DNA of 63,888 nucleotides, filler included, from Reclinomonas americana ATCC 50394 (taxonomy: Eukaryota), in assembly GCA_048213135.1 (NCBI GenBank). It is 18 parts of 18 records of this genome, joined end to end, with 100 filler letters (N's around TTAATTAATTAA, not from the genome) between each part and the next. Parts side by side here need not be neighbours in the genome. Positions count along the whole stretch, not along the records: positions 1 to 16,649 come from AFZH01023494.1; 17 more parts are not named here. The stretch is one strand, 5' to 3'. Positions 854 through 46,314 of the stretch are shown here, piece by piece. The first letter of the stretch is position 1; the number at the start of each line of letters is the position of its first letter. The position numbers and the translations under genes were made by a program. The notes under the pieces are model-generated. The model worked only from the letters and a program-made list of their open reading frames with translations, was not told the origin of the DNA and did no database searches.

Positions 854-3800
854 ATGTCGGTGAGTTGTATTGATTGCGTGGGGGACGCTTGTTGTTCGCA
901 TGCTTCTCCCTGTCTTCTCTCTCCTCGTCGCTTGTCGCTCACTGTTCTCGTTGACACAGTTCTCTGTGCATGTGAGTGCGGCGCATGATTCGTCGCTGTC
1001 GGTGGTGGTGGAGGGCATGTCGGCCATGTCCACTCTGGCGGACTTGCTGCGCGAGGCCACACGCTTGCTGCGAGAGAAGAGTGGAGATGGGGAGATGGAG
1101 ATTGTGGGAGTGGAGAAGCCGCTGCCACTCAACATTGAGGAGGGAGGAGACATTCCGCTGCGCATTTTCGGCATCAACTCATTAACACACCTTGTTGTCC
1201 GTCTGACACTTGGCATGGCGCTGCAGTCAAGTGGAGGGAGTGGGGGTGTAAGGTATGCGTTTGTGAATCATCTCTGTGTGCAAAACATGCCACTCACCCT
1301 CATGTCCTCCCCAGCAACTCGGAGAGAGTAACTCGGTTTGTTTGCTTGCATTCGTCCTTTTCTCCCTTTCACTCACCCTCATGTCCTCCCCAGCAACTCG
1401 GAGAGAGTAACTCGGTTTGTTTGCTTGCATTCGTCCTTTTCTCCCTTTGCTTGTTCTTCCACGCGAGGCGAGTCTGTGCTGATCGTGTTTATGTGTGCAC
1501 GCGCAGCATGATCAACTTCAATCGCATCAATATGGCCTTTGAGGTGGTGGAGGAGGCCGTGCGTCTGCGCTGTCAACGCGCTCTTGCGCAGTTCAGTCGC
1601 GAACATGACAATTTTGATGTGCGGGCATACGCTCCGGATTTATGGTCGCAGAGGATCGAACACGGCGACTTGTGGGCGTGGGTGCCCTGCTTTGTGAGCT
1701 CAAACATGCGTATGCGTGAATCAGCCGTTACGGCATGGCGTGAGCGACATTCTCCACTCCATCCCTCTCGAGTCAAGTTGTTCGAGGAGAAGCAGCCAGT
1801 TATGTTGGCCTGGCGTGCTGCATTCGACGCTAACCCATCGTGCGACCCCTCATGTGATGGTTTCGACACGACGGCACTCTCCTCGATCATGTTATACGGC
1901 GGCCTTGCAAAAGGTGGCTATCGGCGTCTGCGCATTTTGCTTATTGACGGCGTTGATGAACGGAAGGCTGTGGAACATCTTCGTGATGCAAGAAACGCGA
2001 CAAGTCATGGTGGATTACCGTTCACAGACGCCACTGTGCAGCAGTACCTTGGTGACAGTGGTGTCTTCCTCTCCATCCTCTCACGACTGCAACTGATGGC
2101 TGACGAGATTGCTCGCTACACTGCTCGTATCTGTGAGGCGCGTCATGTTGACATCAACATCAGCACATTCGAAGAGCGACTGCATCGACTGGCTGTGCGT
2201 GAGCTCTCTTTCTACCAGCACGACGAGAGTGTGCGTAAGGACATGCAGATGTATGTGCCACTGCTGTGCTCACGTGAGCGTGACGTCTCTGCGAGCGACA
2301 AGATGACGGATCTGCTGACGGAGGTGGATGCATTCCTCTCCGACGCCAACACCGCACAGCGTGTACTGGTGCTGTTAGGCAACAGTGGAGCCGGCAAGAC
2401 CACCACCATGTCGGTGCTGGCCGAGCGAGCTTGGCGACAGTGGCAGACGAGGGAGAGCAGACGTGTGCCTGTGCGTGTGCCTCTTGGCGCTCTGCGCAAT
2501 GCCGATGAGCGATTGTTGGAGGAGGCACTGGAGCGACTGTCACCCGAGTTGGGATTCAGCGAGTCGGATGTGCGACGGTTGAAGGAGGAGCCTATGCTGT
2601 TGTTGCTTGACGGATACGACGAGCTGTACAGTGGTGTGAATCTGTTTGTCAAGAATCAGTTGGATGTGTGTCGCGATGTGAAGGTGATTATCACCTGTCG
2701 GGGTGATTACGCGTTGACGACACTGGGTGGAGTGACACAGTATCGACGGTACTTTGCACCAGTGGATGCACGAGGACAGTTGTGCATGCAGCAGCTGATG
2801 GAGCGACACATTGCACCGTTCAACAAGGAGCAGATTGAGGAGTACTGTGTGCGACTGGTGCGAGTGGATGGTGATGATTGTGATGGAGAAGTGCGATGGT
2901 CAACTGCCGATGAGTACATTCGTGCACTGAAGAGTGTGCATGGACTTGATGCACTGGTTTCGAATCCATTCCTGCTGACAGTGGTGGCTCGTGTGTTGCC
3001 GCAGTTGGTGGCGAGTGGTGTGCAGCGTCCGACTCGGTGTGATGTGTTTGACCGATTCATTCGACAATGGATTGAGAGAGAGCAGGAGAGGCAGACACGT
3101 CTCGATGCGGAACGTGTGCCGAGTGAGGAGACATGTCTCTCGTTCTGTGAGGGACTGGCTCGTTTGATGCATGAGAGGAATGTGGTGCGTGTCGTGTCAG
3201 AGGAACGGGCGTTCGAAGAGGACATTGAAGAGTTTGGCGGAGCGCCACTCTCGTTGCCACGAGTAGAAGAGGGCCCGCTTGACAAGTTCCTTGGTCACAA
3301 GAACCAGCATGTGCGAGCGTGCTGTCCGATTGTGCGACGGTACGGGACGGAGCAGTGGGGTTTCGTGCATCTGTCATTGCTGGAGCACTGTGTGGCGCGA
3401 CACGTGTTTGCGTGGGAGACATGGGATGAGAAGAGAAGATTGAAGATGGAAGATGTGCAGCAGCATGTGCTGGCTGTGCGCCTGCTGAATGATCGACCAT
3501 CACTGGTGGAGCAAATGGCCGAGGTGGTACGACGGTCTCCTAAATTGCAAGCGAGACTGTGGGAGGTGATTGAGATGTCACGAAAGGTGGATGAGGAGCG
3601 ACTGGTTACTGCAGCGGCGAATGCAGCGACGGTGTTGTGTGTGGCACAAGTGTCGTTCAGTGGGCGAGATCTGTCGGGGGTGCGAGTGAGGGGTGCGGAT
3701 TTGCGGGATGCGGTGATGCACAGAACAGTGTGGAGGGGAGCGGATTTGCGAGGTGTGAATGTGTGCATGGCGTATGCGAGGGAGGCGGATTTCAGAGGGG

Positions 3801-6274
3801 CGGATGTGACGGGCGTGAAGTGGCCGAGGAAGCCGTTGGTGGGACATATTGGAACAGTCTATGCAGTGACGGTGACACCCGATGGTCAGCACATTGTGAG
3901 TGGCGGTCGTGACAAGACTGTACGTGTGTGGTCGGTGGCGAGCGGCGAGGAGGTGTGCCGACTGGAAGGTCACACAAGTGCGGTATGGTCTGTCGCCGTC
4001 GCCCCAAATAGCCAGCACATTGTGAGTGGCAGCGAGGACAAGACTGTGCGAGTGTGGCCACTAGAAAGTAGCGAAAAGATGCGACGATTGGATGGACACA
4101 CCGGTGCGGTATGGTCTGTCGCCGTCACCCCAAATAGCCAGCACATTGTGAGTGGCAGTGCCGACACGACGGTGCGTGTGTGGTCACTGGCGAGTGGAGA
4201 GGAGGTGCGACGGTTAATTGGGCACTCAGGAATAGTATTTTCCACTATCATCACTGCTGATGGGCAGCATGTCATTAGTGGTAGTGATGACCGGACGGTG
4301 CGAATGTGGTTACTGGCTAGTGGAGAAGAGGTGCGTCGATTGGGGAATGGGGCGAAGTCCGTTGCCGTCACTCCAGATGGCCAGTACATTATCGGCAGTG
4401 GTATAAATGACTGGATGGTGCATGTGTGGTCCGTGTCGAGTGGAGAACAAGTGTGGCGGCTGGTGGGGCACTCTGCAGTGGTGTGGTCTGTCGTCGTGAC
4501 TCCCGACGGTCGATATGTTGTGAGCGGGAGTGCTGACAAGACGGTACGAGTGTGGTCGTTGGCTACAGGAGAGCAAGTGAGACGGTTGGAGGGACACGTG
4601 AATTGGGTGCTGTCTGTAGCTGTCACCCCTGATGGCCAGTTCATTATTAGTGGAAGTGAAGATGGTACAGTGCAGCTGTGTTCTCTGTCAAGCGGAGATG
4701 AAGTCCGCCGCTTACGGCTCGAGGGACACACTCGAGATGTATCTTCTGCCGTCATCACTCTCGATGGTCTGTATGTTGTTAGTGCAGGGTGTTGGGAAAG
4801 ATCAGTACGAGTGTGGTGTGTTGCAAGTGGTGAGATGATTCGCCAGTTGACAGGACATACTAGCTGGGTGAGATGTGTTGCTGTCACCTCCGATAGACAA
4901 CACATCGTCAGCGGAAGTGATGACAAGTCTGTGCGGGTGTGGCTACTGGAGAGTGGGGCAGAAGTGCGTCGATTGAAGGGTCATACCGGTGTGGTGACCG
5001 CTGTTGCCATCACTCCCAATGATCAGCACATTGTCAGTTCGAGTGAAGACACGACTATCCGAGTGTGGTCACTTGTGAATGGAAGGGAATTACGACGGTT
5101 GAATAGACTGCACACTCGCGCTGCGGGCACTATAAGTGGATTCGACGAAGACATCTCGGTGCATGTTTGGTCTCTCGTGAGCGAAGACAATGTTCGGCTG
5201 TTTAGGGGGCATACGTACCCTGTGTCGTGTGTTGCCGTCACTCTCGACGGTCAGCATATCGTGAGTGGGAGTGGGGACAGAATTATAAGGTTATGGTCAC
5301 TTGAAGGTGGACAAGAAGTTCGGAGACTGCAAGGACACACTAGCGGGGTGATTTCTATTGCAGTGGCTCCCAACTGTCAGCATATTGTGAGTAGTAGCTT
5401 AGACCAAACGGTGCGATTGTGGTCTGTGGATAATGGGGAGGAAATCCGCCTGCTAGAGAGGAAGGCATTGGGTGTAGTTTTTTCTGTAGCTTTCACTTCT
5501 GACAGTCAGCACATTGTTACGGGAGGCTGGGATACCAAAGTCCGTGTGTATTGTGTGACAAGTGGCGAGGAAGTGCGACGGTTGGACGGACATACGAATT
5601 GGGTGATGTCGGTTGTTGTCACTCCAGGTGGTCAACATATGCTAAGTGGTGGCTTGGATAATACTGTGCGGGTGTGGTCTGTTGCTAGTGGCGAACAAGA
5701 GCAATTACTGACAGGGCACACAGGAGGAGTGCAATCTGTTGCTGCTACTCCCGATGGTCAGAACATTGTGGCTGGCAGTGGAGACGGCCTTGTACGACTA
5801 TGGTCACTGAGGAGTGGAGAAGAATTGCAGCGGTTTGTGGGGCACGATGGCTGGGTGAGGTCTGTCGCTGTGAGTCCCGACGGTCACTTTGTTGCGAGTG
5901 TTAGTGATGACAAAACTGTACGGGTGTGGGCAATGGTGAGTGGAAAGGAAGTGCGGCAAATGGACGATGACAGCCGTGAAGTCTGCTTCACTCAGGATGG
6001 TCAGCATGTTGTGAGTGGGAGCAACGACAACGCTGTACGCGTGTGTTCCTTGCCCAGCGACAACGTGGTCCGGCAAGAAATTCAGTACATTACACACAGT
6101 TTGCGCAACACTACTTTATGTGCTACCAGTCTACGGCCTGGTTGGACACACAATGTCATTTATCTTTACCGTGGTGGCGACGAACTGGTTGAACGCATTC
6201 TTGGCTCATTCCTTCCCGAGTTCGACAGCGACTATTGCGATGGTCGACTGCCGAGGAGTACATTCATGCACTGA
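854..6274 (+). CDS. NLR-like STAND protein 1: UBL - HEPN (DZIP3-like) - NACHT - pentapeptide repeats - ~18 WD40; spliced model join(854..859,960..1252,1507..6274), ~1688 aa
   Basis: Exon 1 is ATG TCG|GTGAGT. Exon 2 starts ACACAG|TTC (960) and ends AG|GTATGC (1252). Exon 3 starts GCGCAG|C ATG (1507). Phases are consistent and every junction is conserved in the paralog at 29091-29752. Walker A GNSGAGKTT (~2378-2404), Walker B LLLLDGYDE, VIITCR, NPFLL, FVHLSLLEH, AAANAATVL, pentapeptides GADLR/EADFR, then GH...VRVWS WD40 repeats. Confidence 0.9.
960..1215 (+). other. Ubiquitin-like N-terminal domain encoded by exon 2 of NLR1
   Basis: FSVHV..LSVVVE..STLADLLREA...PLRIFGINSLTHLVVRL follows the beta-grasp pattern. 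Its end resembles ubiquitin TLSDYNIQKESTLHLVLRL. The pattern is conserved in the paralog (KLKTLGINSSTHLVVRV). Confidence 0.6.
1291..1448. repeat. 79-bp tandem duplication inside NLR1 intron 2
   Basis: cactcaccctcatgtcctccccagcaactcgg... starts at 1291 and again at 1370. Confidence 0.9.
1508..2100 (+). other. HEPN domain (DZIP3/hRUL138-like) of NLR1
   Basis: NFNRINMAFEVVEEAVR at the start, FDTTALSSIM (1862), and AVEHLRDARNATSH with RxxxxH at 1991-2008. The paralog has FDIGDLGSMF and RNTLAH. Confidence 0.7.
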
Positions 6275-6331: not shown

Positions 6332-6434
6332 GTGGATCGTATCTTGTGTGGTTTGTGAAGCGTCATTCGTGATGCAGGTGTTTTCGTATGTTTTGCTGAT
6401 GACATTGTTGTTTGTGTCTTTTGTTTGTGTTCAG

Positions 6435-9400
6435 TTACTTATATGGCGGTGTGGGCACGCCTGTGCAAGTCGGCAGCACTTCGTTGCTTGTTTCTGCAGG
6501 TCTGTTTGTCTCTGCGGTGATGAGTATTCGATCGTCCGTGTCTTGTGTTGCTGACGTGTGTGTGTGTGTCGTTGCAGTGACGAGCTTCTCACCGAGCAGC
6601 ATCATTGTGGAGACGAGTGGCGTGCAAGTGACTGTGAGTGGCAGCGGTCTGTCGGATGCGGATGTGGTGCAAGTGCAGAGTGCGGGTGCATGCACGGGTG
6701 CTGGCACTGTGCTGGCGCTTGTTTCGACGGCGGTCGATGGACTGACGACGATTCGGCAAACAACAAGCACCTCGCTTGGTGTTGGATCGTATTGGGTGTG
6801 GTGCGTGTCATGTTTTTTTTTTGTGAGCACAAGTTTTGGAGGCGACAGTAATAAGCGCGGTGTCTGTCAAGCGAGAACAGTGCATGTCGTAGAAAGAGTG
6901 AGTGAGAGAGAAAGACGGATAGTGGGGAAGAGAGGAAGAGTGCTCCCTATGAGGTACGCTCCTTTTTCTCCGTGCACTGATTGTTGCATGTTGTTTGTGT
7001 CGCACAGCATTCACTTTGGAGGTGCTCAAGCTGGAGTGTGGCTGCAAGTGCCTGGCGTGTTGGCTATTGGTGCGTGTGTGCGTCCATGGGTGTGTGTGAT
7101 CTGGTGCAGGGTTGCGACTCATGTTGTGCATTATATTGTTGTTTGTTTTGGTTCATGTGTGTGTGTGTGTAGTACCGTCTGCGGACTCGTACACACCGGC
7201 GAGCATCACGAGTGAGACGACGGGTCAGAGTGTGACGGTGACCGGCCATGGTCTCACGGCCAGTGACGACGTGAAGCTTGTGTCTGGAACTGGGTGCTCT
7301 GGATCGCCGTCGTACAGTATGACGACTGGAGCACGCGGAGGATCAGTGGGTGCATGGACATTGACGGTGACGACGAGTAATGTGAATCTGACGCCGGCGG
7401 GACAGTATTCTGTGTGGTTCGTCTTTCGCAATCCGCATTGGTGTTGCTGAGAAGAAATTCGGCTTGTCACTGACTTAATGTGTGTATGCGATGACAACCA
7501 TGCAGCTATCGATTCAACGGCACGGGGGCATATGTGCAAGTGACATCGACGCTTTTGAATGTCAGTTGAGTGATTATTTGGAGAGAGAATGAATGTGTGT
7601 GTGTGTGAAAGAGAGAAAGAGAGGGAATGAGAAGTTGTACATGTCGAAGGATCTGACATATAAGCGGCTCCACTCTTCCCCTCTCCCCTTCGTTTTTCTT
7701 CCGTTTTCTCTCCTCCTCCCATTTTTGCAGACAAACTGGCGGAGTCATGCACGCCGAGTTCGATTGTGGCGGAGACGAGTGGACAGACGATCACGGTGAC
7801 TGGACGTGGTCTGACGACGGCCGATGCGATTCGATTGGTGCTCGGTGCTTCGTGTGGCGGAGCGACGACGTACGATCTGGCTGTGGGATCGGCGGGTGGT
7901 GTTGCGGGAGCACGGACTGTGGTTGGCACAGTGTCGGATGTGAATCTGACGCCGGCTGGCTCGTATGTGGTGTGGTGAGTGTGTGTTTGTGGAGATGAGA
8001 TGTGATGTGGTGGAGAGGGATTGGGTTTGCGTGCTTGCTGTTGTTGTTCTTGCAGAGTGATTCTCGTTTATGAGATTTTCTGCTGTTTCGACTGACGTGT
8101 TGTGCATGGAACAGCTACAAGTACAACAACACTGGATCGTTTGTGGCGCTGACGGGAGCACTGAGCGTGTGTTGCGTAACTGTTTTCTTGATTCAAGGTC
8201 TAGTTTTAGTTCCATTCCGCTAACTGGTTGTGCGCTCCATTACAGCCAAATCGGCAACGTCATACTCGCCGTCGAAGGTCACTGCAGAGACGACTGGCGA
8301 AACCGTGACTGTAACTGGACGCGCATTGTCATACACAGATGCTGTGCGACTGGTGTTGGGTGCGACGTGTGGTGGTTCGACTTCGTTCACGTTGACAACT
8401 GGCACTGTCGGTGGAAGCGCCGGAGCGCGCACGGTTCGCTTCATCACGTCAAGCACTGCGATCGCTGCGGGATTTTACACTGTGTGGTATGTTTTGGACG
8501 TGATTGTGTCTTGGTGCTGTGGACGTCGGTTGTGCTTACTCGGTGCTGCTGTACTCCTCTCATAGTTATCAGTACGACGCTACCGACAGTCTTGTCAGTG
8601 TTGGCAGTGCATTGGAAGTTGGTGCGTTCACACATATTTGCTTCCTCCATTTTCACTTTGTTGCTTGTCCCCTTTGTTGTCTCCTTGTATCTATCATGCT
8701 TCTCACTTTCTGTTCATTACCACAGGTGCAAGCGGTGACTCCTTCACTCCTTCATCGATACGCTCCGAGACCAGCGGCGAGGTGATTTCCGTTACTGGTC
8801 ACGGCCTTGCCAACTCCGATTCTGTGCAACTTGCTGCCGGTGTTGGATGCGCGGGTACAACGTACAGCCTGTCAACGGGCTCATTGAGCGGATCGGCGGG
8901 TGCGCGAGTTTTGACGGCTTCCACTCCTGGTCTCACCATTCCGGCGGATGTTTACACTATTTGGTTAGTGGATGCGCGTTTCTAGTCTCATGCGCTCTGG
9001 ATGTGTTCCTCTCTGCTTCCCTCTCTCTCAACAATTTCTCCTCTCCCAGCATTCAGTTCAGCTATACTACCGGCTATGTGGCTGTTTCTGGCGGCACGAT
9101 TACTGCTGGTACGTTCATATCACGGTCTCAATGGGAATAGATGGCGCTATCTTACATTTCTTCGTGGGTTCCATTTTCCTGTGCTGCTGATATACAGTCG
9201 AGACGGCCGCACCGGCCACGATATTCTCTGGAACCGCCAATCTAGTGATTACCATTACAGGGCACGGCTTGCTTGCGGCCGATGCGGTCAAGCTGGTGTC
9301 TGGGACGACTTGCAGCGGCAGTCCGCAGTTCCCTTTGTCTCCGAGTGCAGCAACTGCTGGCGTGGCAGGAGCGCGGCTGAAGACGGCATTTACCCCGAAT

Positions 9401-33323: not shown

Positions 33324-34666
33324 ATGTCCCTCTCTCCCGTCCTCCTCCCCTCCAAGCACATTTCTGGTCACACGGACACCGTAACGTGTGCCGCCATCAC
33401 TCCCAATGGTCAACACATCGTCTCTGGGAGTACGGACTGCACAGTGCGCGTGTGGTCACTGGCGACTGGAGCTGAAGTGCGACGACTGGAGGGACACAAG
33501 CATCATGTAAACTCTGTCGCCGTCACTCCCAATGGCCAGCGCATCGTGAGTGGCAGTTCTGACCGAACGCTGCGAGTGTGGTCGCTAGAGAGTGGAGAAG
33601 AAGTGCGTATTTTGAAGGGCCACACTGATGAAGTGGGGCCTGTTGCCATCACTCCCGACGGGCAGCATGCTGTCAGTGGGAGTTATGACAAAACTGTGCG
33701 TGCGTGGTCACTGGCGAGGGGGATCCGGAAGGAGGTGCGACTAATGGAGGGGCACACTTGGTGGGTGATCTCTGTCGCCATCACGTCGGATGGTCTCTAC
33801 ATTGTATCTAGTAATGTGAAGATGCACTGCGACAGTTGGTCATGCAAATCGGAGTCTCTACTTACATTTCGCGACTTGCGCAAGACACAACTTTTGCCCC
33901 ACACTCGGGTAAAGGGTCAAGGGCCCAGGAAGCCAACGGTCAAGAGCAAAGGGTCAAGGGTAGGGGCCCCCGGGTTAAGGGTTAAGGGTCAAGGAGCTGC
34001 ATCCTGTCACATTCACCGTCGGGTATAAACTAATCAGCGGAAGCAATGACAGGACTGTGCGGGTGTGGTCGCTGGAGAATGGCGCCGAAGTGCGAAGGCT
34101 GGAGGGTCACAGAGGTGGGGTGTATTCTGTTGCCATTACACCCAATGGTCAGCACATTGTGAGTTGCAGTCACGACGGGACCATGAGAGTGTGGTCAATG
34201 GCGACTGGGATCCGGAAGGAGGTGCGACGGTTTGAGGGACATACTCTTGACACGATTCGCATCTCCATCGCCCCCGACGGTGAGCACGTTATGAGTGGAG
34301 GTAATGTTTGACCCGATTGTGCGAGTGTGGTCACTGGCAAGTGGGAGAGAGGTGCTACAGCTTGAGGGACACGCTGGAGGTGTGCGCTCTGTGGCCGTGA
34401 CTCCCGATGGTTGGCATGTAGTGAGTGGTGGTGAAGACTACACTTTGCGAGTGTGGTCCACTCCGTGTGGCCTTGCTGCTTTCGAGCTCGATACAGCACG
34501 AGCGGCGATGCGAGCCGTGCAGGAGACGCAGCGAGAAGCTGTGGTTGACGAAGATGAAGAATCGGATTCACGGTGTCTGCCAGAGATTGTGCTGAGGTGC
34601 TTCATTGTGGAGGAGGCGGCGGTGGTGCTGCATCGGCGCAGCATTGATCCCGAGTCGCACTTGTGA
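33324..34666 (+). pseudogene. WD40 array copy W2, disrupted
   Basis: 229-bp insertion in blade 4 and a further frameshift near 34305. Split into ORFs 33324..34028, 34057..34311 and 34295..34666. Confidence 0.88.
33806..34034 (+). mobile_element. 229-bp insertion, non-autonomous Helitron-like, with TTAAGGG/TCAAGGG repeats
   Basis: Removing it restores ATT GTC AGC GGA AGC as in the paralogs. Ends are A|TCTAGTAATG and CGGGTATAAACTAA|T (TC...CTRR between A and T). No TIR or long TSD. Confidence 0.6.
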
Positions 34667-34963
34667 ATAAGAGAAGAGGATGGCAGAAAAGAAAGAAAAA
34701 GAGTTGCCCTTCATATATATGTTCTCTGCTGAACAGATGAACCAGTTGTGCCTGCTTTTTTGATCCAGAATACACCTGCATTCGATGCGAGCAAGACACT
34801 GACTGCTGCTCGTTGTGGTGTTGATGGGTGTGGTGCGCAAGGAAGTGCGATGAATGTCCAACGTTGTCCTCGTCCCGCGTTTCACGCACACGCAGACGCA
34901 CACATCCGCAGAGTTGATTGTTGCTTCTCTCTCACTCCCTGTCTGCTCTCCTCTCCCTTCTCC

Positions 34964-36067
34964 ATGTCCCTCTCTCCCTCTCCCCTCACTCTCCTCCCCT
35001 CCAAGCACATCACTGGTCACACGGGCGCTGTGATGTTTGTCGCCATCACTCCCAATGGTCAGCACATTATCTCCGGGAGCCAAGACAAGACTGTGCGCGT
35101 GTGGTCACTTGAGAGTGGAGAGGAGGTGCGACGACTGGAGGGACACACTGATATGGTGTTGTCTGTTGCCGTGACTCCCAATGGCCAGCACATCGTGAGT
35201 GGCAGTGTTGACTGTACAGTGCGAGTGTGGTCACTGGAGAGTGGAGAAGAAGTGCGACGGTTGAAGGGACACACTTTGTCGGTGCGGTCTGTTGCCATCA
35301 CTCCTGACGGGCAGCATGCTGTCAGCGGGAGCAGGGACAACACCGTGCGTGTGTGGTCACTAGCGAGTGGAGTGGAGGTGAGGAGATTCGAGGGACACAC
35401 TGGATGGGTGACGTCTGTCGCCGTCACGCCGGATGGTCTCTACGTTGTTAGCGGGAGTGGCGACGAAACTATGCGAGTGTGGTCACTGGAGAATGGCGCG
35501 GAAGTGCGCCGGTTTGAAGGACACAATAATTGGGTGCTATCGGTTGCCGTTACACCCGATAGTCAGCACATTGTGAGCTGCAGTCCCGCCGATACTGTGC
35601 GAGTGTGGTCAATGGCGACTGGGAAGGAAGTGCGACGGTTTGAGGGACATAATCTTGACACGATTCGCATCTCCGTCACCCCCGACGGCGAGCACGTTAT
35701 GAGTGGAGGTAATTTGTATAATCCGGTTGTGCGAGTGTGGTCACTGGCAAGTGGAAGAGAGCTGCGGCAGCTGGAGGGACACGCTGGAGGTGTGCGCTCT
35801 GTTGCCATGACTCCCGATGGTTGGCATGTCGTGAGTGGTGGTGAAGACTGCACTTTGCGAGTGTGGTCCACTCCTTGCGGCCTTGGTGCGTTTGAGGTCG
35901 ATACAGCACGGGCGGCAATGCGGGCTGTGCAGGAGATGCAGCGAGAAGCTGAAGATGAAGAACCAGATTCACGGTGTCTGGTGGAGATTGTGCTGCGGTG
36001 CTTCCTTGTGGAGGAGGCGGCGGTGGTTCTACATCGGCGCAGCATTGATCCCGAGTCGCACTTGTGA
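34964..36067 (+). CDS. WD40 array copy W3: 7 WD40 repeats + conserved C-terminal tail
   Basis: MSLSPSPLTLLPSKHITGH start, seven GH..VRVWS repeats, tail CLVEIVLRCFLVEEA. Confidence 0.88.
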   Translation: MSLSPSPLTLLPSKHITGHTGAVMFVAITPNGQHIISGSQDKTVRVWSLESGEEVRRLEGHTDMVLSVAVTPNGQHIVSGSVDCTVRVWSLESGEEVRRLKGHTLSVRSVAITPDGQHAVSGSRDNTVRVWSLASGVEVRRFEGHTGWVTSVAVTPDGLYVVSGSGDETMRVWSLENGAEVRRFEGHNNWVLSVAVTPDSQHIVSCSPADTVRVWSMATGKEVRRFEGHNLDTIRISVTPDGEHVMSGGNLYNPVVRVWSLASGRELRQLEGHAGGVRSVAMTPDGWHVVSGGEDCTLRVWSTPCGLGAFEVDTARAAMRAVQEMQREAEDEEPDSRCLVEIVLRCFLVEEAAVVLHRRSIDPESHL

Positions 36068-36344
36068 CAAAGAGAAGAAGATGGCAGAAGAGAGAAGAGT
36101 TGCCCTGACAGATCAAATGAACGAGTTGTGCCTGTTTTTTTTGATCCAGAGTGCACTCGCATTCGATGCGAGCAAGACACCGACTGCTGCTGGGCGTGGT
36201 GCGCGAGGAATGCCGAAGTGCCGACATCGTCCTAGTCCTACGTTTTCGAGTCGTTTCATAACACAGATCATAACACACACACACACGCACACACACACCA
36301 TCGACGACTTTGCGATTGCTGCCTCTCCCTCCCCTTCCTTTCTC

Positions 36345-37469
36345 ATGTCCACCGCTCCCTCTCCCCTCATCCTCCTCCCCTCCAAGCGCATCACGGGGCA
36401 CTCGGACCCGGTGACATGTGTCGCCATCACCCCCGATGGCGCGCACATTATCTCTGGGAGTACGGACTCCACAGTGCGCGTGTGGTCTTTGGCGACTGGA
36501 GTTGAGGTGCGACGACTGGAGGGACACACGTATTATGTGAACGCAGTCGCCGTCACTCCCACTGGCCAGCACATTGTGAGTGCCAGTGCTGACCGTTCAG
36601 TGCGAGTGTGGTCACTAGAGAGTGGAGAGGAAGTGAGACGGTTAGAGGGACACACAGAGGAAGTGGATTGTGTGGCCATCACTCCTGACGGGGTTCACAT
36701 TGTCAGCGGGAGCAGGGACGACACCGTGCGTGTGTGGTCACTGGCAAGGGGGCAGGAAGTGAGGCGGTTTGAGGGCCACACTGGCGGAGTGAACTCTGTC
36801 GCCGTCACGCCGGATGCTCTCTACGTTGTCTGCGGAAGCAATGACAGGACTGTGCGGGTGTGGTCACTGGAGAATGGCGCTGAAGTGCGACGGGTGGGGG
36901 GACACGCGTATTGGGTGTGGTCGGTTGCCGTTACCCCCAATGGTCAGCACATTGTGAGTTGCAGTGGAGACGAGCCTGTGAGAGTGTGGTCAATGGCGAC
37001 AGGAGAAGAAGTGCGGCGGTTTGAAGGACACACTGAGAACCTGATGCACGTCTCCGTCGCCCCCGGCGGTAAGCACGTTATGAGTGGAGGCAACGGGGAG
37101 GACCCGATTGTGCGAGTGTGGTCACTGGCCAGTGGAAGAGAGGTGCTACAGTTGGAGGGACACACTGAATTTGTGCGTTCTGTTGCCGTCTCACCTGATG
37201 GTCGGCATGTTGTCAGTGGTAGCTTTGACAATACTTTGCGAGTGTGGTCCACTCCGTGTGGCCTCGCTGCGTTTGAGCTTGATGCAGCACGAACGGCAAT
37301 GCGAGCCGTGCAGGAGACGCAGCGAGCATGCGCAGGTGTGGTTGACGAGGGCGAGGACGATGAGCCAGGTTGTTGGTGTTTGGCGGAGATTGTGATGCGC
37401 TGTTTTATTGTGGAGGAAGCGGAGGTTGTGCTTCTTCGGCGCAACATGGATTCGGAGTCGCACTTGTGA
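36345..37469 (+). CDS. WD40 array copy W4
   Basis: MSTAPSPLILLPSKRITGH, 7 repeats, conserved tail. Confidence 0.88.
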   Translation: MSTAPSPLILLPSKRITGHSDPVTCVAITPDGAHIISGSTDSTVRVWSLATGVEVRRLEGHTYYVNAVAVTPTGQHIVSASADRSVRVWSLESGEEVRRLEGHTEEVDCVAITPDGVHIVSGSRDDTVRVWSLARGQEVRRFEGHTGGVNSVAVTPDALYVVCGSNDRTVRVWSLENGAEVRRVGGHAYWVWSVAVTPNGQHIVSCSGDEPVRVWSMATGEEVRRFEGHTENLMHVSVAPGGKHVMSGGNGEDPIVRVWSLASGREVLQLEGHTEFVRSVAVSPDGRHVVSGSFDNTLRVWSTPCGLAAFELDAARTAMRAVQETQRACAGVVDEGEDDEPGCWCLAEIVMRCFIVEEAEVVLLRRNMDSESHL

Positions 37470-38000
37470 GGAGAGAGGGACGAGAGAGAGAGAGAGAGAT
37501 TTAGAGAGTGAGATGCTTGATTTTTGTTTTGTTGTTTGTTTTTTTGTGATGACCCAAAGTGAACGAGTTGTGCTTGTTTGTTAGTGCACCTGCATTCGGT
37601 GCGAGCGACTGCTATTGCGACAGGTGTGATGCACAGCCAAAAATCCGTCCTGGTCCCACACGCACACGCACGCAACGAAACCAAAGTTTGATTGTTGCCT
37701 CTCTGTTCTTCTCTCTCTGTGCTCTCCCTGCTCCCTTGTCTCCTCTCCCTCCCCTCCCTTCCTCTCNNNNNNNNNNNNNNNNNNNNNNNNNNNNNNNNNN
37801 NNNNNNNNNNTTAATTAATTAANNNNNNNNNNNNNNNNNNNNNNNNNNNNNNNNNNNNNNNNNNNNGTGGGCGAGGACGGAAGTGTATCCGTCGCTGAGT
37901 CGTCCTGGTCCCGCGTTTTCACTCAGACGGAATCACACGCGCACACCAGAGTTGATTGTTGCTTCTCTCTGTTTCTTCTCTCTCTCTCTCTCCCGCCATA

Positions 38001-39119
38001 ATGTCCCTCGCTCCCTCTCCACTCACTCTACTCCCCTCCAAGCGCATTACTGGACACACGGGCCCTGTGCCGTGTGTCGCCATCACTCCCGATGGGCAGC
38101 ACATTATCTCTGGAAGTACGGACTGCACAGTGCGAGTGTGGTCTCTGGTGACTGGAGTTGAGGTACGACGACTGGAGGGACACACGCATTATGTGACCGC
38201 TGTTGCCATCACTCCCGATGGGCAACACATCGTGAGTGGCAGCTTCGACTGGACGCTTCGAGTGTGGTCACTTGAGAGTGGAGAAGAAGTGCGACGGTTA
38301 GAGGGCCACACTGGAGCAGTGGAATTTGTTGCCATCACTCCCGACGGGGTTCACATTATCAGCGGGGGCAGGGACGAAACTGTGCGTGTGTGGTCACTGG
38401 CGAGTGGAGAGGAGGTGCAACGAATGGAGGAGCACACTTGGTGGGTGAACTCTGTCGCCATCACGCCAGATGGTCTCTACGTTGTCAGCGGGAGTGGCGA
38501 CAAGACGGTGCGGGTGTGGTCACTAGCAACAGGAGAAGTGCGACGGCTGAAGGGACACAAAGGTGAGGTGGGCTCTGTTGCCATTGCACCCGATGGACAG
38601 CACGTTGTGAGTTGCAGTCACGATAAGACTATGAAAGTGTGGTCAATGACGACTGGCAAGGAAGTGCGTCGGTTTGAAGGACATACTTGTGATAAGATGC
38701 ACGTCTGCGTCACCCCCGACGGTAAGCACGTTGTGAGTGGGGGCAACATTTCTGACCCGATTGTGCGAGTATGGTCACTGGCCAGTGGAAGAGAGGTCCG
38801 ACAGTTGAAGGGACACGATGGATACGTGGGCTCTGTTGCCGTGACTCCCGATGGTCGGCATGTTGTGAGTGGTGGTTATGACAGAACTGTACGAGTGTGG
38901 TCCACTCCTTGTGGCCTCGCTGCGTGTGAGTTGGGCGCAGCACGTGAGGCAATGCGAGCCGTGCAGGAGATGCAGCTAGAAGAGATTACTGACGACGAAG
39001 ACGATGACGACGAGCCAGATTGTTGGTGCCTGTCGGAGATTGTGCTGCGGTGCTTCATTGTGGAGGAGGCGGCGCTTGTGCTTCATCGGCGCAGCATGGA
39101 CCCAGAGCCGCACTTGTGA
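38001..39119 (+). CDS. WD40 array copy W5
   Basis: MSLAPSPLTLLPSKRITGH, 7 repeats, conserved tail. Confidence 0.88.
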   Translation: MSLAPSPLTLLPSKRITGHTGPVPCVAITPDGQHIISGSTDCTVRVWSLVTGVEVRRLEGHTHYVTAVAITPDGQHIVSGSFDWTLRVWSLESGEEVRRLEGHTGAVEFVAITPDGVHIISGGRDETVRVWSLASGEEVQRMEEHTWWVNSVAITPDGLYVVSGSGDKTVRVWSLATGEVRRLKGHKGEVGSVAIAPDGQHVVSCSHDKTMKVWSMTTGKEVRRFEGHTCDKMHVCVTPDGKHVVSGGNISDPIVRVWSLASGREVRQLKGHDGYVGSVAVTPDGRHVVSGGYDRTVRVWSTPCGLAACELGAAREAMRAVQEMQLEEITDDEDDDDEPDCWCLSEIVLRCFIVEEAALVLHRRSMDPEPHL

Positions 39120-39505
39120 GAGGAGGAATGATAGAAAAGAGAAGTTGTTTGACTTCGTTTTGTTGTTTTGTGTTGGTGATGACCCAAAGTGAACTAGTTG
39201 TGCCTGCGTGTTGATCCAGAGTGCACCTGCATTCGATGCGAGCAGTGTCAAGGCTTCTGTTCGTCGTGGTAAGACAGGGCGTGGTATGCTTGGATGACGA
39301 AGTCGACCATTGCGGGCTGGCGCGACCGATTTGCAAGTGACCGACCGATGCTGTGCGATCATGAGCGAGAAATCGAGGTGGACCGGCGTTGTCCTGGTCC
39401 GGCGTCTTCTCACACACGCACCCCGACGACTTGCGAGTTGATTGTTCCCCCTCCTCTTCTGTCCCTCCCTGCTCTTCTCTCTCTCTCTCTCTCTCTCCCT
39501 TCCTC

Positions 39506-40615
39506 ATGTCCCTCTCTCCCTCTCCCCTCCTCCTTACCTCCTACTGCCTCACCGGTCACACGAGCCCAGTGATGTGTGTCGCGGTCACTCCCAATGGTCA
39601 GTATATTGTCTCTGGGAGTCAAGACAAGACATTGCGAGTGTGGTCTCTGGCGACTGGAGCTGAGGAGCGACGACTGGAGGGGCACACGTATTATGTGTTA
39701 TCTGTTGCCGTCACTCCCGATGGACGACACATCGTGAGTGGCAGTGCTGATCACACTGTGCGAGTGTGGTCCCTGGAGAGTGGAGAGGAAGTGAGACGGT
39801 TAGAGGGACACACTGGATGGGTGCAATCTGTCGCCGTCACTCCCGACGGGGTTCACAGGGTGAGTGGCAGTAGGGACTGCACCGTTCGTGTGTGGTCACT
39901 GGCGAGTGGAGAGGAAGTGAGGCGGTTTGAAGGGCACACTTGGTGGGTGAACTCTGTCGCCGTCACGCCGGATGGTCTCTACGTTGTCAGCGGAAGCAAT
40001 GACAAGACTGTGCGGGTGTGGTCACTGGAGTATGGCGCCGAAGTGCGCCGGTTTAAAGGACACAATAACTGGGTGCTATCGGTTGCCATAACACCCGATG
40101 GTCAGCACATTGTGAGTTGCAGTGGAGACGAGACTGTGAGAGTGTGGTCAATGACGACAGGCGAGGAAATGCGACGGTTTGAAGGACACACTGGTGACAA
40201 GATTCACGTCTCCGTCACCCCCGACGGAGAGCACGTTATGAGTGGAGGCAACCATGCTGACCCGATTGTGCGAGTGTGGTCACTGGCAATTGGAAGAGAG
40301 GTGCGACAGTTGAAGGGACACACTGGAGGTGTGCGCTCTGTTGCCGTGACTCCCGATGGTTGGCATATCGTGAGTGGCAGTTATGACAGAACTGTACGAG
40401 TGTGGTCCACTCCTTGCGGCCTCGCTGTGTTTGAGCTCGATACAGCGCGGGTGGTGATGCTGGCTGTGCAGGAGATGCTGCGAGGAGCTGTCGTGGATGA
40501 ATTCGAAGAGCCGGATTCGCGGTGCCTGCCAGAGATGGTGCTGCGGTGCTTCATTGTGGAAGAGGCGGCGGTGGTGCTGTATAGGCGAAGCGTTGAACCG
40601 GAGTCGCACTTGTGA
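39506..40615 (+). CDS. WD40 array copy W6
   Basis: MSLSPSPLLLTSYCLTGH, 7 repeats, tail CLPEMVLRCFIVEEA. Confidence 0.88.
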   Translation: MSLSPSPLLLTSYCLTGHTSPVMCVAVTPNGQYIVSGSQDKTLRVWSLATGAEERRLEGHTYYVLSVAVTPDGRHIVSGSADHTVRVWSLESGEEVRRLEGHTGWVQSVAVTPDGVHRVSGSRDCTVRVWSLASGEEVRRFEGHTWWVNSVAVTPDGLYVVSGSNDKTVRVWSLEYGAEVRRFKGHNNWVLSVAITPDGQHIVSCSGDETVRVWSMTTGEEMRRFEGHTGDKIHVSVTPDGEHVMSGGNHADPIVRVWSLAIGREVRQLKGHTGGVRSVAVTPDGWHIVSGSYDRTVRVWSTPCGLAVFELDTARVVMLAVQEMLRGAVVDEFEEPDSRCLPEMVLRCFIVEEAAVVLYRRSVEPESHL

Positions 40616-40816
40616 ATAATGGGAGGGATGAGAGAGTTGTGATTGCATGTTGTTGTTTCATGTTTTTGTGATGAGCCATCAAGTGAATATTGTGCACCTG
40701 GTTGGCGCACCTGCGCNNNNNNNNNNNNNNNNNNNNNNNNNNNNNNNNNNNNNNNNNNNNTTAATTAATTAANNNNNNNNNNNNNNNNNNNNNNNNNNNN
40801 NNNNNNNNNNNNNNNN

Positions 40817-41822
40817 CTCTGTGAGCCAAGACAAGACAGTGCGAGTGTGGTCTCTGGTGACTGGAGCTGAGGTGCGACGACTGGAGGGACACACGTATTA
40901 TGTGAACTCTGTTGCCGTCACTCCCAATGGCCAGCACATCGTGAGTGGCAGTTCTGACTACACAGTGCGAGTGTGGTCACTGAAGAGTGGGAGGAAAGTG
41001 CATCTGTTGAGGGGCCACACTAAGCAAGTGGAATCTGTCGCCATCACTCCCGACGGTCAGCTCGTTGTGAGTGGAAGTGAGGACAAAACTGTGCGAGTGT
41101 GGTCACTGGAGAGTGGAGAGGAGGTGAGGCGGTTTGAGGGGCACACTGGGGGAGTGTGCTCTGTCGCCATCACGCCGGATGGTCTCTTCGTTGTCAGCGG
41201 AAGCAATGACAAGACTGTGCGGGTGTGGTCACTGGAGAATGGTGCAGAAGTGCGCTGGATGGACGGGCATAGAAGTTGGCTGTGGTCGGTTGCCGTTACA
41301 CCCAATGGCCAGCACATTGTGAGTTGCAGCTTAGACAAGACTGTGAGAGTGTGGTCAATGGCGACAGGAGAAGAAGTGCAGCGGTTTGATGGACACACTC
41401 AGAACCTGTTATTCGCCTCCGTCACCCCCGACGGTGAGCACGTTGTAAGTGGAGGCAATGCTGCTGACCCGATTGTGCGAGTGTGGTCACTGGCCAGTGG
41501 AAGAGAGGTGCGACAGTTGGACGGACACATCGGATATGTGGGCTCTGTTGCCGTCTCACCTGATGGTCGGCATGTTGTGAGCGTTGGTCATGACAGGACT
41601 GTACGAGTGTGGTCCACTCCTTGTGGACTCGCTGCGTGTGAGCTTGATACAGCACGGGCGGCGATGCGGGCTGTGCAGGAGATGCTGCGAGAAGCAGTTG
41701 TTGACGAAGATGAAGAATCGGATTCGCGGTGTCTGCCAGAGATGGTGCTGAGGTGCTTCATTGTGGAAGAGGCGGCGGTGGTGCTGTATCGGCAAAGCAT
41801 TGAACCGGAGTCGCACTTGTGA
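40817..41822 (+). CDS. WD40 array copy W7 (5' end lost in the linker)
   Basis: Open frame from mid-blade 1 to the conserved tail. Confidence 0.85.
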
Positions 41823-42136
41823 ATAATGGGAGGGATGAGAGAGTGAACGAATTCGAATTGTTTGATTGCATGTTGTAGTTTTGTTTTGTTTTGTGACGAG
41901 CCATCAAGTGAATATTGTGCACCTGCTTGGCGCACCTGCATTCTACGTGAGCGAGGCCAAGGCTGCTGTTCGTCGTGATAAGACAGGGCGTGGTTTGCTT
42001 GGATGACGAAGTCAACCATCAGTGTCCTGGTCCGGCGTCTTCAACACACGCTCACGCACCCCGACGACTTGCGAGTTGATTGTTCCCCCTCTCTTCTGTC
42101 CCTCCCTGCTCTTCTCTCTCTCTCTCTCCATTCCTC

Positions 42137-43252
42137 ATGTCCACCGCTTCCTCTCCCCTTCTCCTTCCCTCCAAGCACATCACTGGTCACACGGGCCACG
42201 TGTCGTGTGTCGCCATCACTCCCGACGGTCGTCACATCGTCTCTGGGAGTACAGACTGCACAGTGCGAGTGTGGTCGTTGGCGACTGGAGTTGAGACGCG
42301 ACGACTGGAGAGACACACTGATTCGGTGCTGTCTGTTGCCGTGACTCCTGATGGCCAGCACATCGTGAGTGGCAGTGATGACCGTACAGTGCGTGTGTGG
42401 TCACTGGAGAGTGGAGAAGAAGAGCGACGGTTAGAGGGGCACGCTGATGAAGTGGTATCTGTTGCCACTACTCCCGATGGGGAGCACGTTGTCAGCGGGA
42501 GCAAGGACAACACCGTGCATGTGTGGTCGTTGTCGAGCGGAGAGGAGGTGAGGCGGTTGGAGGGCCACACTATGGAAGTGTGGTCTGTCGCCATCACACC
42601 GGATGGTCTCCACGTTGTCAGCGGGAGTGGCGACGGGGCTGTGCGAGTGTGGTCGCTGGAGACTGGTGCTGAAGTGCGAAGGCTGGAGGGTCACAAAGGT
42701 TGGGTGTGGTCGGTTGCCGTCACTCCCGATGGTCAGAACATTCTGAGTTGCAGTTTAGACAAGACTATGAGAGTGTGGTCGACGGCGACAGGCAAGGAAG
42801 TGCGGCGGTTTGACGGAAACACTCAAAACGTGTTGCATATCTCCGTCACCCCCCACTGTGAGCACGTTGTGAGTGGGGGCACCGGGGTCGAACCGATTGT
42901 GAGAGTGTGGTCACTGGCAAGTGGGAGAGAGGTCCGACAGTTGAAGGGACACGCTGGCTATGTGAGCTCTGTTGCTGTGTCTCCCGATGGTCGGCATGTC
43001 GTGAGTGGTGGTTATGACAGGATTTTGCGAGTGTGGTCCACTCCTTGTGGCCTCGCTGCGTTTGAGCTCGATACAGCACGAGCGGTGATGCGGGCCGTAC
43101 AGGAGATGCAAGGAGAAGCTGGAGACGACGACGATGAAGGTGACGAGCCAGATTGTTGGTGTCTGGTGGAGATTGTGCTGCGCTGCTTCATTGTGGAGGA
43201 GGCGGCTGTGGTTCTCCACCGGCGAAGCATGGACCCGGAGTCGCACTTGTGA
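42137..43252 (+). CDS. WD40 array copy W8
   Basis: MSTASSPLLLPSKHITGH, 7 repeats, conserved tail. Confidence 0.88.
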   Translation: MSTASSPLLLPSKHITGHTGHVSCVAITPDGRHIVSGSTDCTVRVWSLATGVETRRLERHTDSVLSVAVTPDGQHIVSGSDDRTVRVWSLESGEEERRLEGHADEVVSVATTPDGEHVVSGSKDNTVHVWSLSSGEEVRRLEGHTMEVWSVAITPDGLHVVSGSGDGAVRVWSLETGAEVRRLEGHKGWVWSVAVTPDGQNILSCSLDKTMRVWSTATGKEVRRFDGNTQNVLHISVTPHCEHVVSGGTGVEPIVRVWSLASGREVRQLKGHAGYVSSVAVSPDGRHVVSGGYDRILRVWSTPCGLAAFELDTARAVMRAVQEMQGEAGDDDDEGDEPDCWCLVEIVLRCFIVEEAAVVLHRRSMDPESHL

Positions 43253-43552
43253 GAGAAGTAGAAGCAGAGAGAAGAGTTGCCAGATTGTGATGAGCCAAAG
43301 TGAATGTTGTACACCTTGTTGACGCACCTGCATTCAACGTAATCAATGAAAGCCTGCTGCAAGTCGTTGTGCGTGAGTCGTGAGCGAGGAAGTGCCAGCG
43401 TCGTCCTGTCCCGCAAGCGAGTCTTCAAAAAAACACGATCTCAAAGATCATCTCAAACACACACCGCGACGACGACCGGCGCGCTGATTGTTGCCTCCCT
43501 GCTCCTCTCTCTCTCTCTCTCTCTGCTCCCTGTTCTCTTCTCTCCATCCCCC

Positions 43553-44644
43553 ATGTCCCTCTCTCCCTCTCGCCTCACTCTCCTCCCCTCCAAGTGCATC
43601 ACTGGTCACACGGGCGCTGTGATGTGCGTCGCCATCACTCCCGATGGTCAGCACATCGTCAGTGGGGGTTCTGATTATTCAGTGCGAGTGCGGTCTCTGG
43701 CGACTGGAGCTGAGGTGCGTCTGCTGAAGGGACACACTGGTTTTGTGATCTCTGTTGCCGTCACTCCCAATGGCCAGCACATCGTGAGTGGCAGTGCCGA
43801 CTGTTCAGTGCGTGTGTGGTCACTGGAGAGTGGAGAAGAAGTGAGACTGTTGGAGGGCCACGCTGATGCAGTGGAATCTGTTGCCATCGCCCCCGATGGG
43901 GAGCACGTTGTCAGCGGGAGTTGGGATGCGACAGTGCGTGTGTGGACACTGGCGAGGGGGCAGGAGGTGCGACGAATGTTGGGGCACACTAACTTTGTGA
44001 AATCTGTTGCCGTCACGCCGGATGGTCAACATGTTGTTAGTGGCAGCTGGGACGAGACCGTGCGAGTGTGGTCGCTGGAGAATGGCGCCGAAGTGCACCG
44101 GTTCGACGGGCATAGAGGTTGGGTGCTGTCGGTTGCCATTACACCCGATGGTCAGCACGTCGTGAGTTGCAGTTCCGCCGATACAATGAGAATGTGGTCA
44201 ATGGCGACTGGGAAGGAAGTGCGACGGTTTGAAGGACACACTCGTAACAAGTTGCACGTCTCCGTCACCCCCGACGGTGAGCACGTTGTAAGTGGAGGCA
44301 ACGGGGTTGACCCGATTGTGAGAGTGTGGTCACTGGCCAGTGGAAGGGAGGTGCGGCAGCTGGAGGGACACACAGGAGGTGTGCGGTCTGTTGCCGTCTC
44401 ACCTGATGGTCGGCATGTTGTAAGTGGTAGCAATGACAATACTTTGCGAGTGTGGTCCACTCCATGTGACCTCGCTGTGTTTGAGCTCTACACAGCACGA
44501 ACGGCGATGCGGGCCGTGCAGGAGATGCAACGAGAAGAAGCAGATTCGCGGTGTCTGCCAGAGATTGTGCTGAGGTGCTTCATTGTGGAAGAGGCGGCGG
44601 TGGTGCTGTATCGGCAAAGCATTGAACCGGAGTCGCACTTGTGA
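43553..44644 (+). CDS. WD40 array copy W9
   Basis: MSLSPSRLTLLPSKCITGH, 7 repeats, tail with a shortened acidic linker. Confidence 0.88.
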   Translation: MSLSPSRLTLLPSKCITGHTGAVMCVAITPDGQHIVSGGSDYSVRVRSLATGAEVRLLKGHTGFVISVAVTPNGQHIVSGSADCSVRVWSLESGEEVRLLEGHADAVESVAIAPDGEHVVSGSWDATVRVWTLARGQEVRRMLGHTNFVKSVAVTPDGQHVVSGSWDETVRVWSLENGAEVHRFDGHRGWVLSVAITPDGQHVVSCSSADTMRMWSMATGKEVRRFEGHTRNKLHVSVTPDGEHVVSGGNGVDPIVRVWSLASGREVRQLEGHTGGVRSVAVSPDGRHVVSGSNDNTLRVWSTPCDLAVFELYTARTAMRAVQEMQREEADSRCLPEIVLRCFIVEEAAVVLYRQSIEPESHL

Positions 44645-46076: not shown

Positions 46077-46089
46077 AACATGGGAGAGG

Positions 46090-46166
<77 letters not shown>

Positions 46167-46314
46167 TAGTAGTAGTAGTAGTAGTAGTTAGTAGTAGTAG
46201 TAGTAGTAGTAGTANNNNNNNNNNNNNNNNNNNNNNNNNNNNNNNNNNNNNNNNNNNNTTAATTAATTAANNNNNNNNNNNNNNNNNNNNNNNNNNNNNN
46301 NNNNNNNNNNNNNN

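Follow-up and report, generated by a model that had tools for sequence, protein, structure and literature searches.

HEPN-NACHT receptors and a candidate locus of Reclinomonas americana

HEPN domains placed in front of a NACHT module, where an immune receptor carries its effector, are on record from animals and bacteria, and we describe here a gene from Reclinomonas americana ATCC 50394 whose product most likely carries a very divergent domain of this kind in the same position, as far as its sequence features indicate. The gene, paralog A, lies at 854-6274 on the plus strand of a 63,888-nucleotide stretch (18 parts of assembly GCA_048213135.1 joined end to end, filler included), referred to throughout as the window; a second copy, paralog B, lies at 24577-29752 on the minus strand. 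The window has a base composition of about 54% G+C and reads as eukaryotic-looking DNA. Judged from its sequence, paralog A is a real, intact eukaryotic gene of about 1.7 thousand codons for a receptor of the STAND (signal transduction ATPases with numerous domains) or NOD-like receptor (NLR) type.

The text and Table 1 of a survey of HEPN domains record that in animals DZIP3-like HEPN is fused to NACHT, CARD, DEATH or LRR and that it has expanded in Nematostella, oyster and Capsaspora; they also list fusions of CXorf38-HEPN to NACHT and, in bacteria, N-terminal HEPN domains joined to STAND NTPases (PMC3710099). The relevant sections of a study of pearl oyster report more than 50 NACHT proteins with an N-terminal DZIP3-like HEPN domain, and note that the C-termini of NACHT proteins can be LRR, TPR or WD40 (PMC9646362), while a study of anthozoans gives 17-83 HEPN-NACHT proteins per species (PMC8260672). 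These bivalve and cnidarian proteins (PF18738 plus PF05729) form lineage-specific expansions in clustered loci (PMC9646362, PMC8260672, PMC3710099 Table 1). The logic proposed for HEPN-NACHT proteins runs from sensing through clustering to RNA cleavage (PMC3710099), and in the parts of all three papers that treat it the ribonuclease (RNase) role of a NACHT-fused HEPN is a prediction (PMC3710099, PMC9646362, PMC8260672). Among fungi, NLRs with ubiquitin-clan (Crinkler) N-termini have been described, as has a helical NLR N-domain shared, possibly by transfer, between Linnemannia and Mycoavidus (relevant passages of PMC9815663).

The preliminary description of this locus, which knew of no account of a protein that reads ubiquitin-like domain (UBL), HEPN, NACHT, pentapeptide and WD40 in that order, overstated its novelty, as an N-terminal HEPN on NACHT is already found in those portions of PMC9646362, PMC8260672 and PMC3710099 that treat the fusion. 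We found no title or abstract that describes the full order, in a literature coverage that was incomplete and did not extend to supplementary tables. The concept of a HEPN domain in the NACHT effector position is thus in print, and what is new here is an orphan HEPN-like domain on a chassis of the Mortierellomycotina type.

That chassis, a NACHT-pentapeptide-WD40 core, is certain from matches to family profiles at or above threshold, in agreement with the modules first named for the locus. The NACHT NTPase core spans 2384-2707 (+) and starts with a Walker A sequence, GNSGAGKTT; Pfam NACHT scores 27.8 bits in paralog A and 36.4 bits in paralog B (cut-off 26.7). Pentapeptide repeats (PF00805; E 2.2e-07, 30.8 bits against a cut-off of 20.2) lie at 3650-3754 (+), between the NACHT module and the WD40 repeats, and the latter occupy 3830-6103 (+) with a tandem period of 126 nt (Pfam WD40, E 3.1e-152; about 18 repeats by length, 15 stretches scored) and are followed by a short conserved C-terminal tail. 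Of 8000 candidates scored in a search with amino acids (aa) 230-760, from NACHT through the pentapeptide repeats, 943 proteins reached E<=0.001. Together with the NACHT and WD40 matches, these homologs make the receptor interpretation of the preliminary description, with NACHT as a STAND ATPase, WD40 as the predicted sensor and an N-terminal effector position, well supported on sequence grounds.

The best core homolog among the scored candidates was from Dissophora globulifera (E 5.8e-83, 29% identity, 94% coverage), and others came from Linnemannia, Mortierella, Modicella, Gryganskiella and Benniella, and from the bacterial endosymbionts Mycoavidus and Glomeribacter. These proteins share the order NACHT, pentapeptide (PF00805), WD40, and are homologous over aa 230-760 at about 30% identity and 90-100% coverage. 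The resemblance ends at the N-terminus: most of the Mortierellomycotina-type NLRs have 600-700 aa before Walker A, their N-termini are dissimilar to the N-terminal domain described below, and a comparison of that domain with the N-termini of 120 NACHT-WD40 homologs gave no similarity (best E 0.39). Windows drawn as controls from four of these homologs matched the ARM-like family ARM_5 (PF23948), for which Pfam gave no match in the window protein. To our knowledge, no HEPN-like or UBL-like part is known in Mortierellomycotina or endosymbiont proteins of the NACHT-pentapeptide-WD40 type. No near-identical match was found, and the proteins of the source organism are therefore absent from the collection searched. 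A scan of genome contigs with the NACHT region found no relative.

Fungal NACHT-WD40 NLRs of the HET-E/HNWD type, with their N-terminal effectors, offer a second comparison. Like them, paralog A has highly similar tandem WD40 repeats (the 126-nt period), an N-terminal effector position, and a paralog and repeat-rich neighbors; unlike them, it has a pentapeptide spacer, and its candidate effector is not HET.

The candidate HEPN domain

The N-terminal region of the exon 3 product (aa 10-192; 1535-2083, +) reads as a helical domain, in the order of a first helix with an E-x3-R motif, a long variable insert, a helix with FD..L, a helix with RN...H, and a last helix. The first helix is the same in the two paralogs, and its E-x3-R motif (E15...R19; 1550-1564, +) is accordingly invariant. 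The candidate Rx4H catalytic motif is R-N-A-T-S-H in paralog A (R162/H167; 1991-2008, +) and R-N-T-L-A-H in paralog B (28655-28638, -), and both sit exactly where the preliminary description had placed them when the sequence is read. The FD...L..[IM] pattern that it also named is present in both paralogs by alignment; its NFNR is found in paralog A, whereas paralog B reads YFNR.

The same motif lies in the most divergent part of the gene. A cassette at 1627-2023 (+; aa 40-172), with its counterpart in paralog B at 28616-28972 (-), cannot be aligned between the paralogs as DNA by blastn, its proportion of synonymous differences (pS) is 0.81, which is saturated, and its proportion of nonsynonymous differences (pN) is 0.42. 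Across this saturated synonymous divergence R-N-x3-H is retained in both paralogs, and the codons for R, N and H all differ synonymously (AGA/CGC, AAC/AAT and CAT/CAC in A and B, respectively).

The passages of the HEPN survey on motifs give Rx4-6H with a polar residue (N, D or H) after the arginine as typical, and Ex3[KR] as a second motif (PMC3710099). R-N-x3-H in both paralogs fits this description of the first motif (PMC3710099), and E15-x3-R19, which aligns to helix 1 of Swt1-type domains, would be the equivalent of the second.

Searches against profiles point the same way. HEPN_Swt1 (PF18731) was the sole Pfam family reported for paralog A at E<=10, with E 0.054 for the N-terminal domain and 0.038 for a 143-aa piece of it, and the alignment covers the motif (profile positions 74-105 of 115). 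We compared this with 18 natural 143-aa control windows that contain R[NDH]xxxH, drawn from the N-terminal 700 residues of the homologs and in several cases related to one another; none of the 18 gave any HEPN family. In an ESM Atlas feature search, the best named clusters were HEPN_Swt1 (0.78) and HEPN_DZIP3 (0.77) for paralog A; for paralog B the best three were HEPN_DZIP3 (0.82, 0.79 and 0.79), and HEPN_Swt1 stood at 0.76. As all of these are below 0.9, they count as leads only. In Pfam at E<=10 we found no HeLo, HET, Goodbye, TIR, Death or other effector family in the domain.

For a profile-to-profile comparison we collected Swt1-type HEPN domains (PF18731), with matches in 12 of 401 sampled genomes, and aligned the 11 bacterial domains that remained after one partial match was dropped. 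With hhalign, aa 115-175 aligned to positions 51-105 of this set (P 0.025-0.032), pairing FD..aL..im with lDlaaLl.il and the RN...H helix with the RNrwAH helix; helix 1 alone (aa 10-32) aligned to positions 1-23 (P 0.043), and the two matches are therefore co-linear. The observed score was never attained in 160 column shuffles, and was attained in 3 of 160 when the motif was held fixed; the score of helix 1 was reached by 6 of 100 shuffles and by 12 of 200 natural 45-aa windows, three of which also aligned at the start of the template. In this respect the domain resembles Swt1/Abi2-type HEPN, a type whose bacterial versions include some fused to large NTPase proteins, with helix 1, FD..L, RN..H and the last helix co-linear with the 11 bacterial members. 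As a side observation on the sample itself, 5 of the 12 matches begin open frames of 1050-1223 aa (L005, L006, L007, L011 and L012), and the fusion of Swt1-type HEPN to large proteins is, by these open frames, common in it.

Other results are null or weigh against a HEPN identity, which the preliminary description had predicted and which accordingly stands in part: the subthreshold HEPN_Swt1 match (in paralog A), the Atlas leads and the hhalign alignments favor it, while no family threshold was reached. HEPN_Swt1 scored 14.2-14.7 bits in paralog A, about half of the family cut-off of 27.5 bits, the N-terminal domain of paralog B had no Pfam match of any kind, and HEPN_DZIP3 (PF18738) gave no match in Pfam at E<=10. 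E values in the range of 0.04-0.1 are ordinary here, because unrelated Pfam matches fell there in 5 of the 18 control windows. In a six-frame scan of the window (993 pieces, 91,681 aa), a hidden Markov model (HMM) of the 11 bacterial domains failed to single out the N-terminal domain: paralog B took third place with 3.6 bits, and paralog A did not appear at E<=100. When natural windows with R....H at the same offset were scored against the HEPN alignment, 22 of 167 equaled or exceeded paralog A and 43 of 167 paralog B. It is also probable that the positive leads share a single signal, the helical context around RNxxxH, which is the one on which the domain was originally selected.

Searches for relatives of the domain likewise lent no support to a HEPN identity. 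A full HMMER search of 1.84 billion representative proteins found no real homologs, a word-index search with region 1-270 gave none among 1305 scored candidates, and one with the two-sequence alignment gave none among 708 candidates even at E<=10. A PDB profile search had no matches, and PADLOC, NCBIfam and PHROGs returned nothing meaningful. AlphaFold2 models made from the two-sequence input were all-helical and of unusable confidence (pLDDT, the predicted local distance difference test, of 39.2 for aa 1-291 and 42.2 for aa 73-215), and Foldseek with the low-confidence model of aa 73-215 found nothing in the PDB at E<=0.001.

Several candidate matches were rejected. Two HMMER matches to the domain were repetitive bacterial adhesins, matched over 10-11 repeats; a TIGR02692 match of 14.8 bits against a cut-off of 438.8 was noise; and the Foldseek rows, all with E>2 and all unrelated helical proteins, were disregarded. 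Separately, the top scores of the null set against the HEPN alignment (up to 21.8) came from R-L-Q-[DE]-[TI]-H windows at about residues 220-330 of Mortierellomycotina NLRs (P0064, P0018, P0027, P0083, P0110 and P0040). These high scores, which fall within the first 700 residues of those NLRs, are probably due to chance in helical repeats.

The results above suit a rival explanation in which the domain is a lineage-specific, non-HEPN helical domain, such as a HeLo/MLKL-type executioner bundle that targets membranes or a module for adaptor functions or oligomerization, and RNxxxH is conserved for noncatalytic reasons. The lack of any match at threshold, the empty Pfam result for paralog B, the natural-window control that did not reach significance, the bacterial Swt1 HMM that misses the domain and its orphan status among the representative proteins are all as this explanation would have it, and about 45 of the 133 positions in the cassette are the same in both paralogs, which means that conservation does not set R, N and H apart. 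It accounts less readily for the fact that the one Pfam lead and the top named clusters of the Atlas all belong to HEPN families, across cassettes as diverged as these, that no motif-bearing control gave a HEPN family, that two profile matches are co-linear and accompanied by an E-x3-R helix, and that HeLo and the other effector families named above are absent at E<=10. We regard it as a serious minority view, unlikely but by no means negligible, and we lean toward HEPN as the identity of the domain, with some reserve. Should the domain turn out to be something other than HEPN, the locus would still be a clean case of an expanded NACHT-WD40 cluster, and an ordinary finding.

A different question is whether a HEPN fold, if present, would be a nuclease. 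The domain might instead serve for RNA binding or for sensing, a role proposed for the eukaryotic Swt1 HEPN dyad, or act as a decoy, with the divergence of the cassette reflecting binding specificities. That aa 40-172 are far more diverged than the flanks and the introns is a pattern more often met in recognition surfaces than in generic enzymes, and Table 1 of the survey lists the Swt1 family as 'partly conserved ... inactive' (PMC3710099). Yet the arginine, the polar asparagine and the histidine have persisted through the saturated synonymous divergence, while the families called inactive in the text of the survey have lost the motif (PMC3710099). A HEPN fold with no nuclease role appears improbable to us. 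The divergence of the cassette may reflect evasion of inhibitors, target specificity or a role in recognition.

Taken as a whole, the explanation that we find best, by a slender balance, is a NACHT-pentapeptide-WD40 receptor with a divergent HEPN effector of the Swt1/DZIP3 type and a probable UBL-like header (considered below). In such a receptor, by analogy with established STAND/NLR behavior, the WD40 propellers would bind a ligand, the NACHT module would exchange nucleotide and oligomerize, and the oligomer would cluster the N-terminal domains. Dimerization driven by this proximity would then pair the R-N-x3-H sites into a predicted metal-independent RNase center, provided that the domain is HEPN, and cleavage of RNA would stop translation or kill the cell, as proposed for the bivalve and cnidarian HEPN-NACHT proteins. 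Oligomerization driven by a sensor that activates a HEPN RNase by dimerization is also the logic of RNase L and the Ire1 KEN RNases (survey text, PMC3710099). The likeness to these would extend to the proposed logic only: paralog A has no kinase or ankyrin parts, and no sequence relation was detected.

With the bivalve and cnidarian proteins the candidate receptor shares an N-terminal R-N-x3-H domain in the NACHT effector position and C-terminal repeats (LRR, TPR or WD40 in theirs, according to the relevant section of PMC9646362), and the best Atlas clusters of paralog B, as leads, belong to the same DZIP3 family. It differs from them in the missing PF18738 match, in its Mortierellomycotina-type core, in the long variable insert after helix 1 and in the possible UBL-like exon in front. 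Were the domain confirmed as HEPN, the architecture would have arisen or spread outside animals, on a NACHT-pentapeptide-WD40 chassis otherwise from early-diverging fungi and endosymbionts, and the single intact gene would provide a tractable test of an NLR whose oligomerization switches on a HEPN RNase. A more elaborate version, in which a one-protein sensor-to-RNase receptor was built independently from an orphan HEPN in ancient recombining cassettes, homogenized paralogs, a ubiquitin-like header and an array of WD40-only genes (described below) that could feed repeat exchange, seems doubtful to us as a complete account; if true, it would take HEPN-NLR immunity outside animals and bacteria and offer a compact system for testing RNA cleavage activated by oligomerization.

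Gene model, upstream exon and paralog comparison

The largest open reading frame (ORF) of the window, at 1346-6274 (+; 1642 codons), contains most of the receptor, and a three-exon model extends it upstream. Exon 1 (854-859, +) is ATG TCG, encoding Met-Ser, followed by the donor GTGAGT. Intron 1 (860-959, +; 100 nt) runs from GT to ACACAG, and its acceptor sets exon 2 (960-1252, +) in an open frame. Intron 2 (1253-1506, +) runs from AAG|GTATGC to CGCGCAG|C, and exon 3 (1507-6274, +) carries the helical N-terminal domain, NACHT, the pentapeptide repeats, WD40, the C-terminal tail and the terminal stop codon.

The model is self-consistent in both paralogs, in which the GT-AG sites and phases are identical and the joined frame is open. 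The start, ATGTCG|GTGAGT, is the same in A and B (exon 1 of paralog B at 29752-29747, -), intron 1 is 100 nt long in both (83% identity, gap runs of 3 and 6 nt), and exon 2 of paralog B (29646-29348, -) is open in the same phase as that of A. In both copies exon 2 is about 295 nt long and ends in AAG|GT, and intron 2 is about 255 nt long and ends in CAG|C.

Exon 2 encodes a putative UBL of about 85 aa with a β-grasp-like pattern, followed by a Gly/Ser linker. By the pattern of its substitutions, exon 2 evolves as coding sequence under purifying selection in frame. The ratio of nonsynonymous to synonymous substitution rates (dN/dS) is 0.44 overall and 0.27, 0.75 and 0.23 by segment, the middle one being variable; amino acid identity between the paralogs is 72%, and this conservation ends exactly at the exon 2 donor. 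Indels between the paralogs include a single one of 6 nt in exon 2, which is in frame, and ones of 1, 13 and 15 nt in the introns.

These observations make it likely that exons 1 and 2 are spliced in frame onto exon 3, as a fused model requires, although some features could be read otherwise. The first ATG of exon 3, at 1508, stands one base past the acceptor in paralog A and likewise in paralog B, and because it directly follows the acceptor a protein starting there is conceivable; moreover, the DNA of exon 2 is 81% identical between the paralogs, no higher than that of the introns (78-83%). Translation of the NLR would in that case begin at 1508, and 854-1252 would be a 5' leader or upstream ORF, or else a small gene of its own. 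We consider this arrangement rather unlikely, in view of the in-frame purifying selection on exon 2 (strongest in the flanking segments), the sole in-frame indel, the agreement of donor and acceptor phases in both copies with an uninterrupted frame into the Gly/Ser linker, and the arrest of amino acid conservation precisely at the donor.

Whether the product of exon 2 is in fact a UBL is a finer balance. By eye, it shows a pair of short β-like stretches and an amphipathic helix, with L-V-V-R-x-T-L-G at its C-terminal side ahead of the Gly/Ser linker, and from this pattern and its coding-type evolution we put the chances of a UBL or β-grasp-like module at about even. Against it, exon 2 had no ubiquitin-clan match in Pfam (no family at all at E<=10), NCBIfam, PHROGs or PADLOC, and the sole match in a PDB profile search was a designed helical protein at E 1.1, with no solved UBL. 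The early report of a UBL on a separate exon therefore survives as far as the exon and its conserved phases are concerned, while its ubiquitin-like character found no counterpart in these profile collections. Within the fused receptor, such an exon would add a small β-grasp-like (UBL-like) module and the Gly/Ser linker, with regulation, an adaptor function or a simple header as candidate roles.

Paralog B has the exon structure and domain order of paralog A by sequence comparison, but near 27641 it lacks one nucleotide that is present in A. This 1-nt deletion leaves two ORFs, 27570-29249 and 24577-27642, and breaks the frame after the NACHT module and before the pentapeptide repeats and WD40. 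The preliminary description had both paralogs reading through the full architecture after splicing; this applies to paralog A, and to B in its exon structure, while the frame of B is interrupted. From its sequence, paralog B would be either a recent pseudogene or the product of an assembly error.

Outside the cassette the paralogs are 79-90% identical by segment, over the upstream region, both introns, exon 2 and 2024 to 4204, and dS in the flanks is 0.35-0.47. This mosaic, in which an ancient cassette of about 400 nt with the putative active site lies in similar flanks, suggests either exchange of cassettes or homogenization of flanks among a larger family of paralogs. The pattern bears on how the effector domains of immune receptors evolve, with an ancient cassette around a putative active site and flanks that look homogenized.

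Two side observations concern the paralogs. A sequencing run (X1) yielded one contig that equals 2100-2401 perfectly and another that differs from 2383-2700 at 27 positions and by 3 gaps; the latter therefore probably represents at least a third paralog in the source organism. The contigs of X1 and of a second small DNA run, X2, lie within 2100-2700 and contain no joints, and a loose end in X2 resembles a library adaptor. Intron 2 holds perfect (100%) tandem duplications of different units in the two copies, 79 nt x2 in paralog A (1291-1448) and 67 nt x2 in paralog B (29108-29241), which are either independent recent events in the same intron or assembly artifacts.

Neighboring sequence in the window

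About a dozen stand-alone WD40 genes, with ORFs of about 330-470 codons each, follow one another in tandem over 33324-51785 (+). These genes have a common start, M-S-L-x-P-S-P..., and a conserved acidic/helical C-terminal tail, and their repeats share 46-56% identity with the WD40 repeats of the NLR. Such genes could encode partners for the NLR or supply it with repeats by exchange.

An Rfam scan of the window returned no families. Among the other non-WD40 ORFs of the window (26 scanned), Pfam gave no family save in a transposase and an fn3 protein. The fn3 domain of the latter (E 1.2e-09) is encoded in a Thr/Ser-rich ORF at 53749-55422 (-). Near 55544-55600 the sequence has a stretch of unknown bases, read as X. 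Beside the NLR, at 6412-8000 (+), are repeated units of about 70 aa with the pattern T-x-S-G-Q-x-V-T-V-T-G-x-G-L, which match no Pfam family. The transposase ORF, of the DDE_1 (pogo/Tc1-like) family (22756-24513, -; E 6.6e-18), is accompanied by an upstream ORF with a helix-turn-helix-like appearance, and this pair directly adjoins the 3' end of the frameshifted paralog B.

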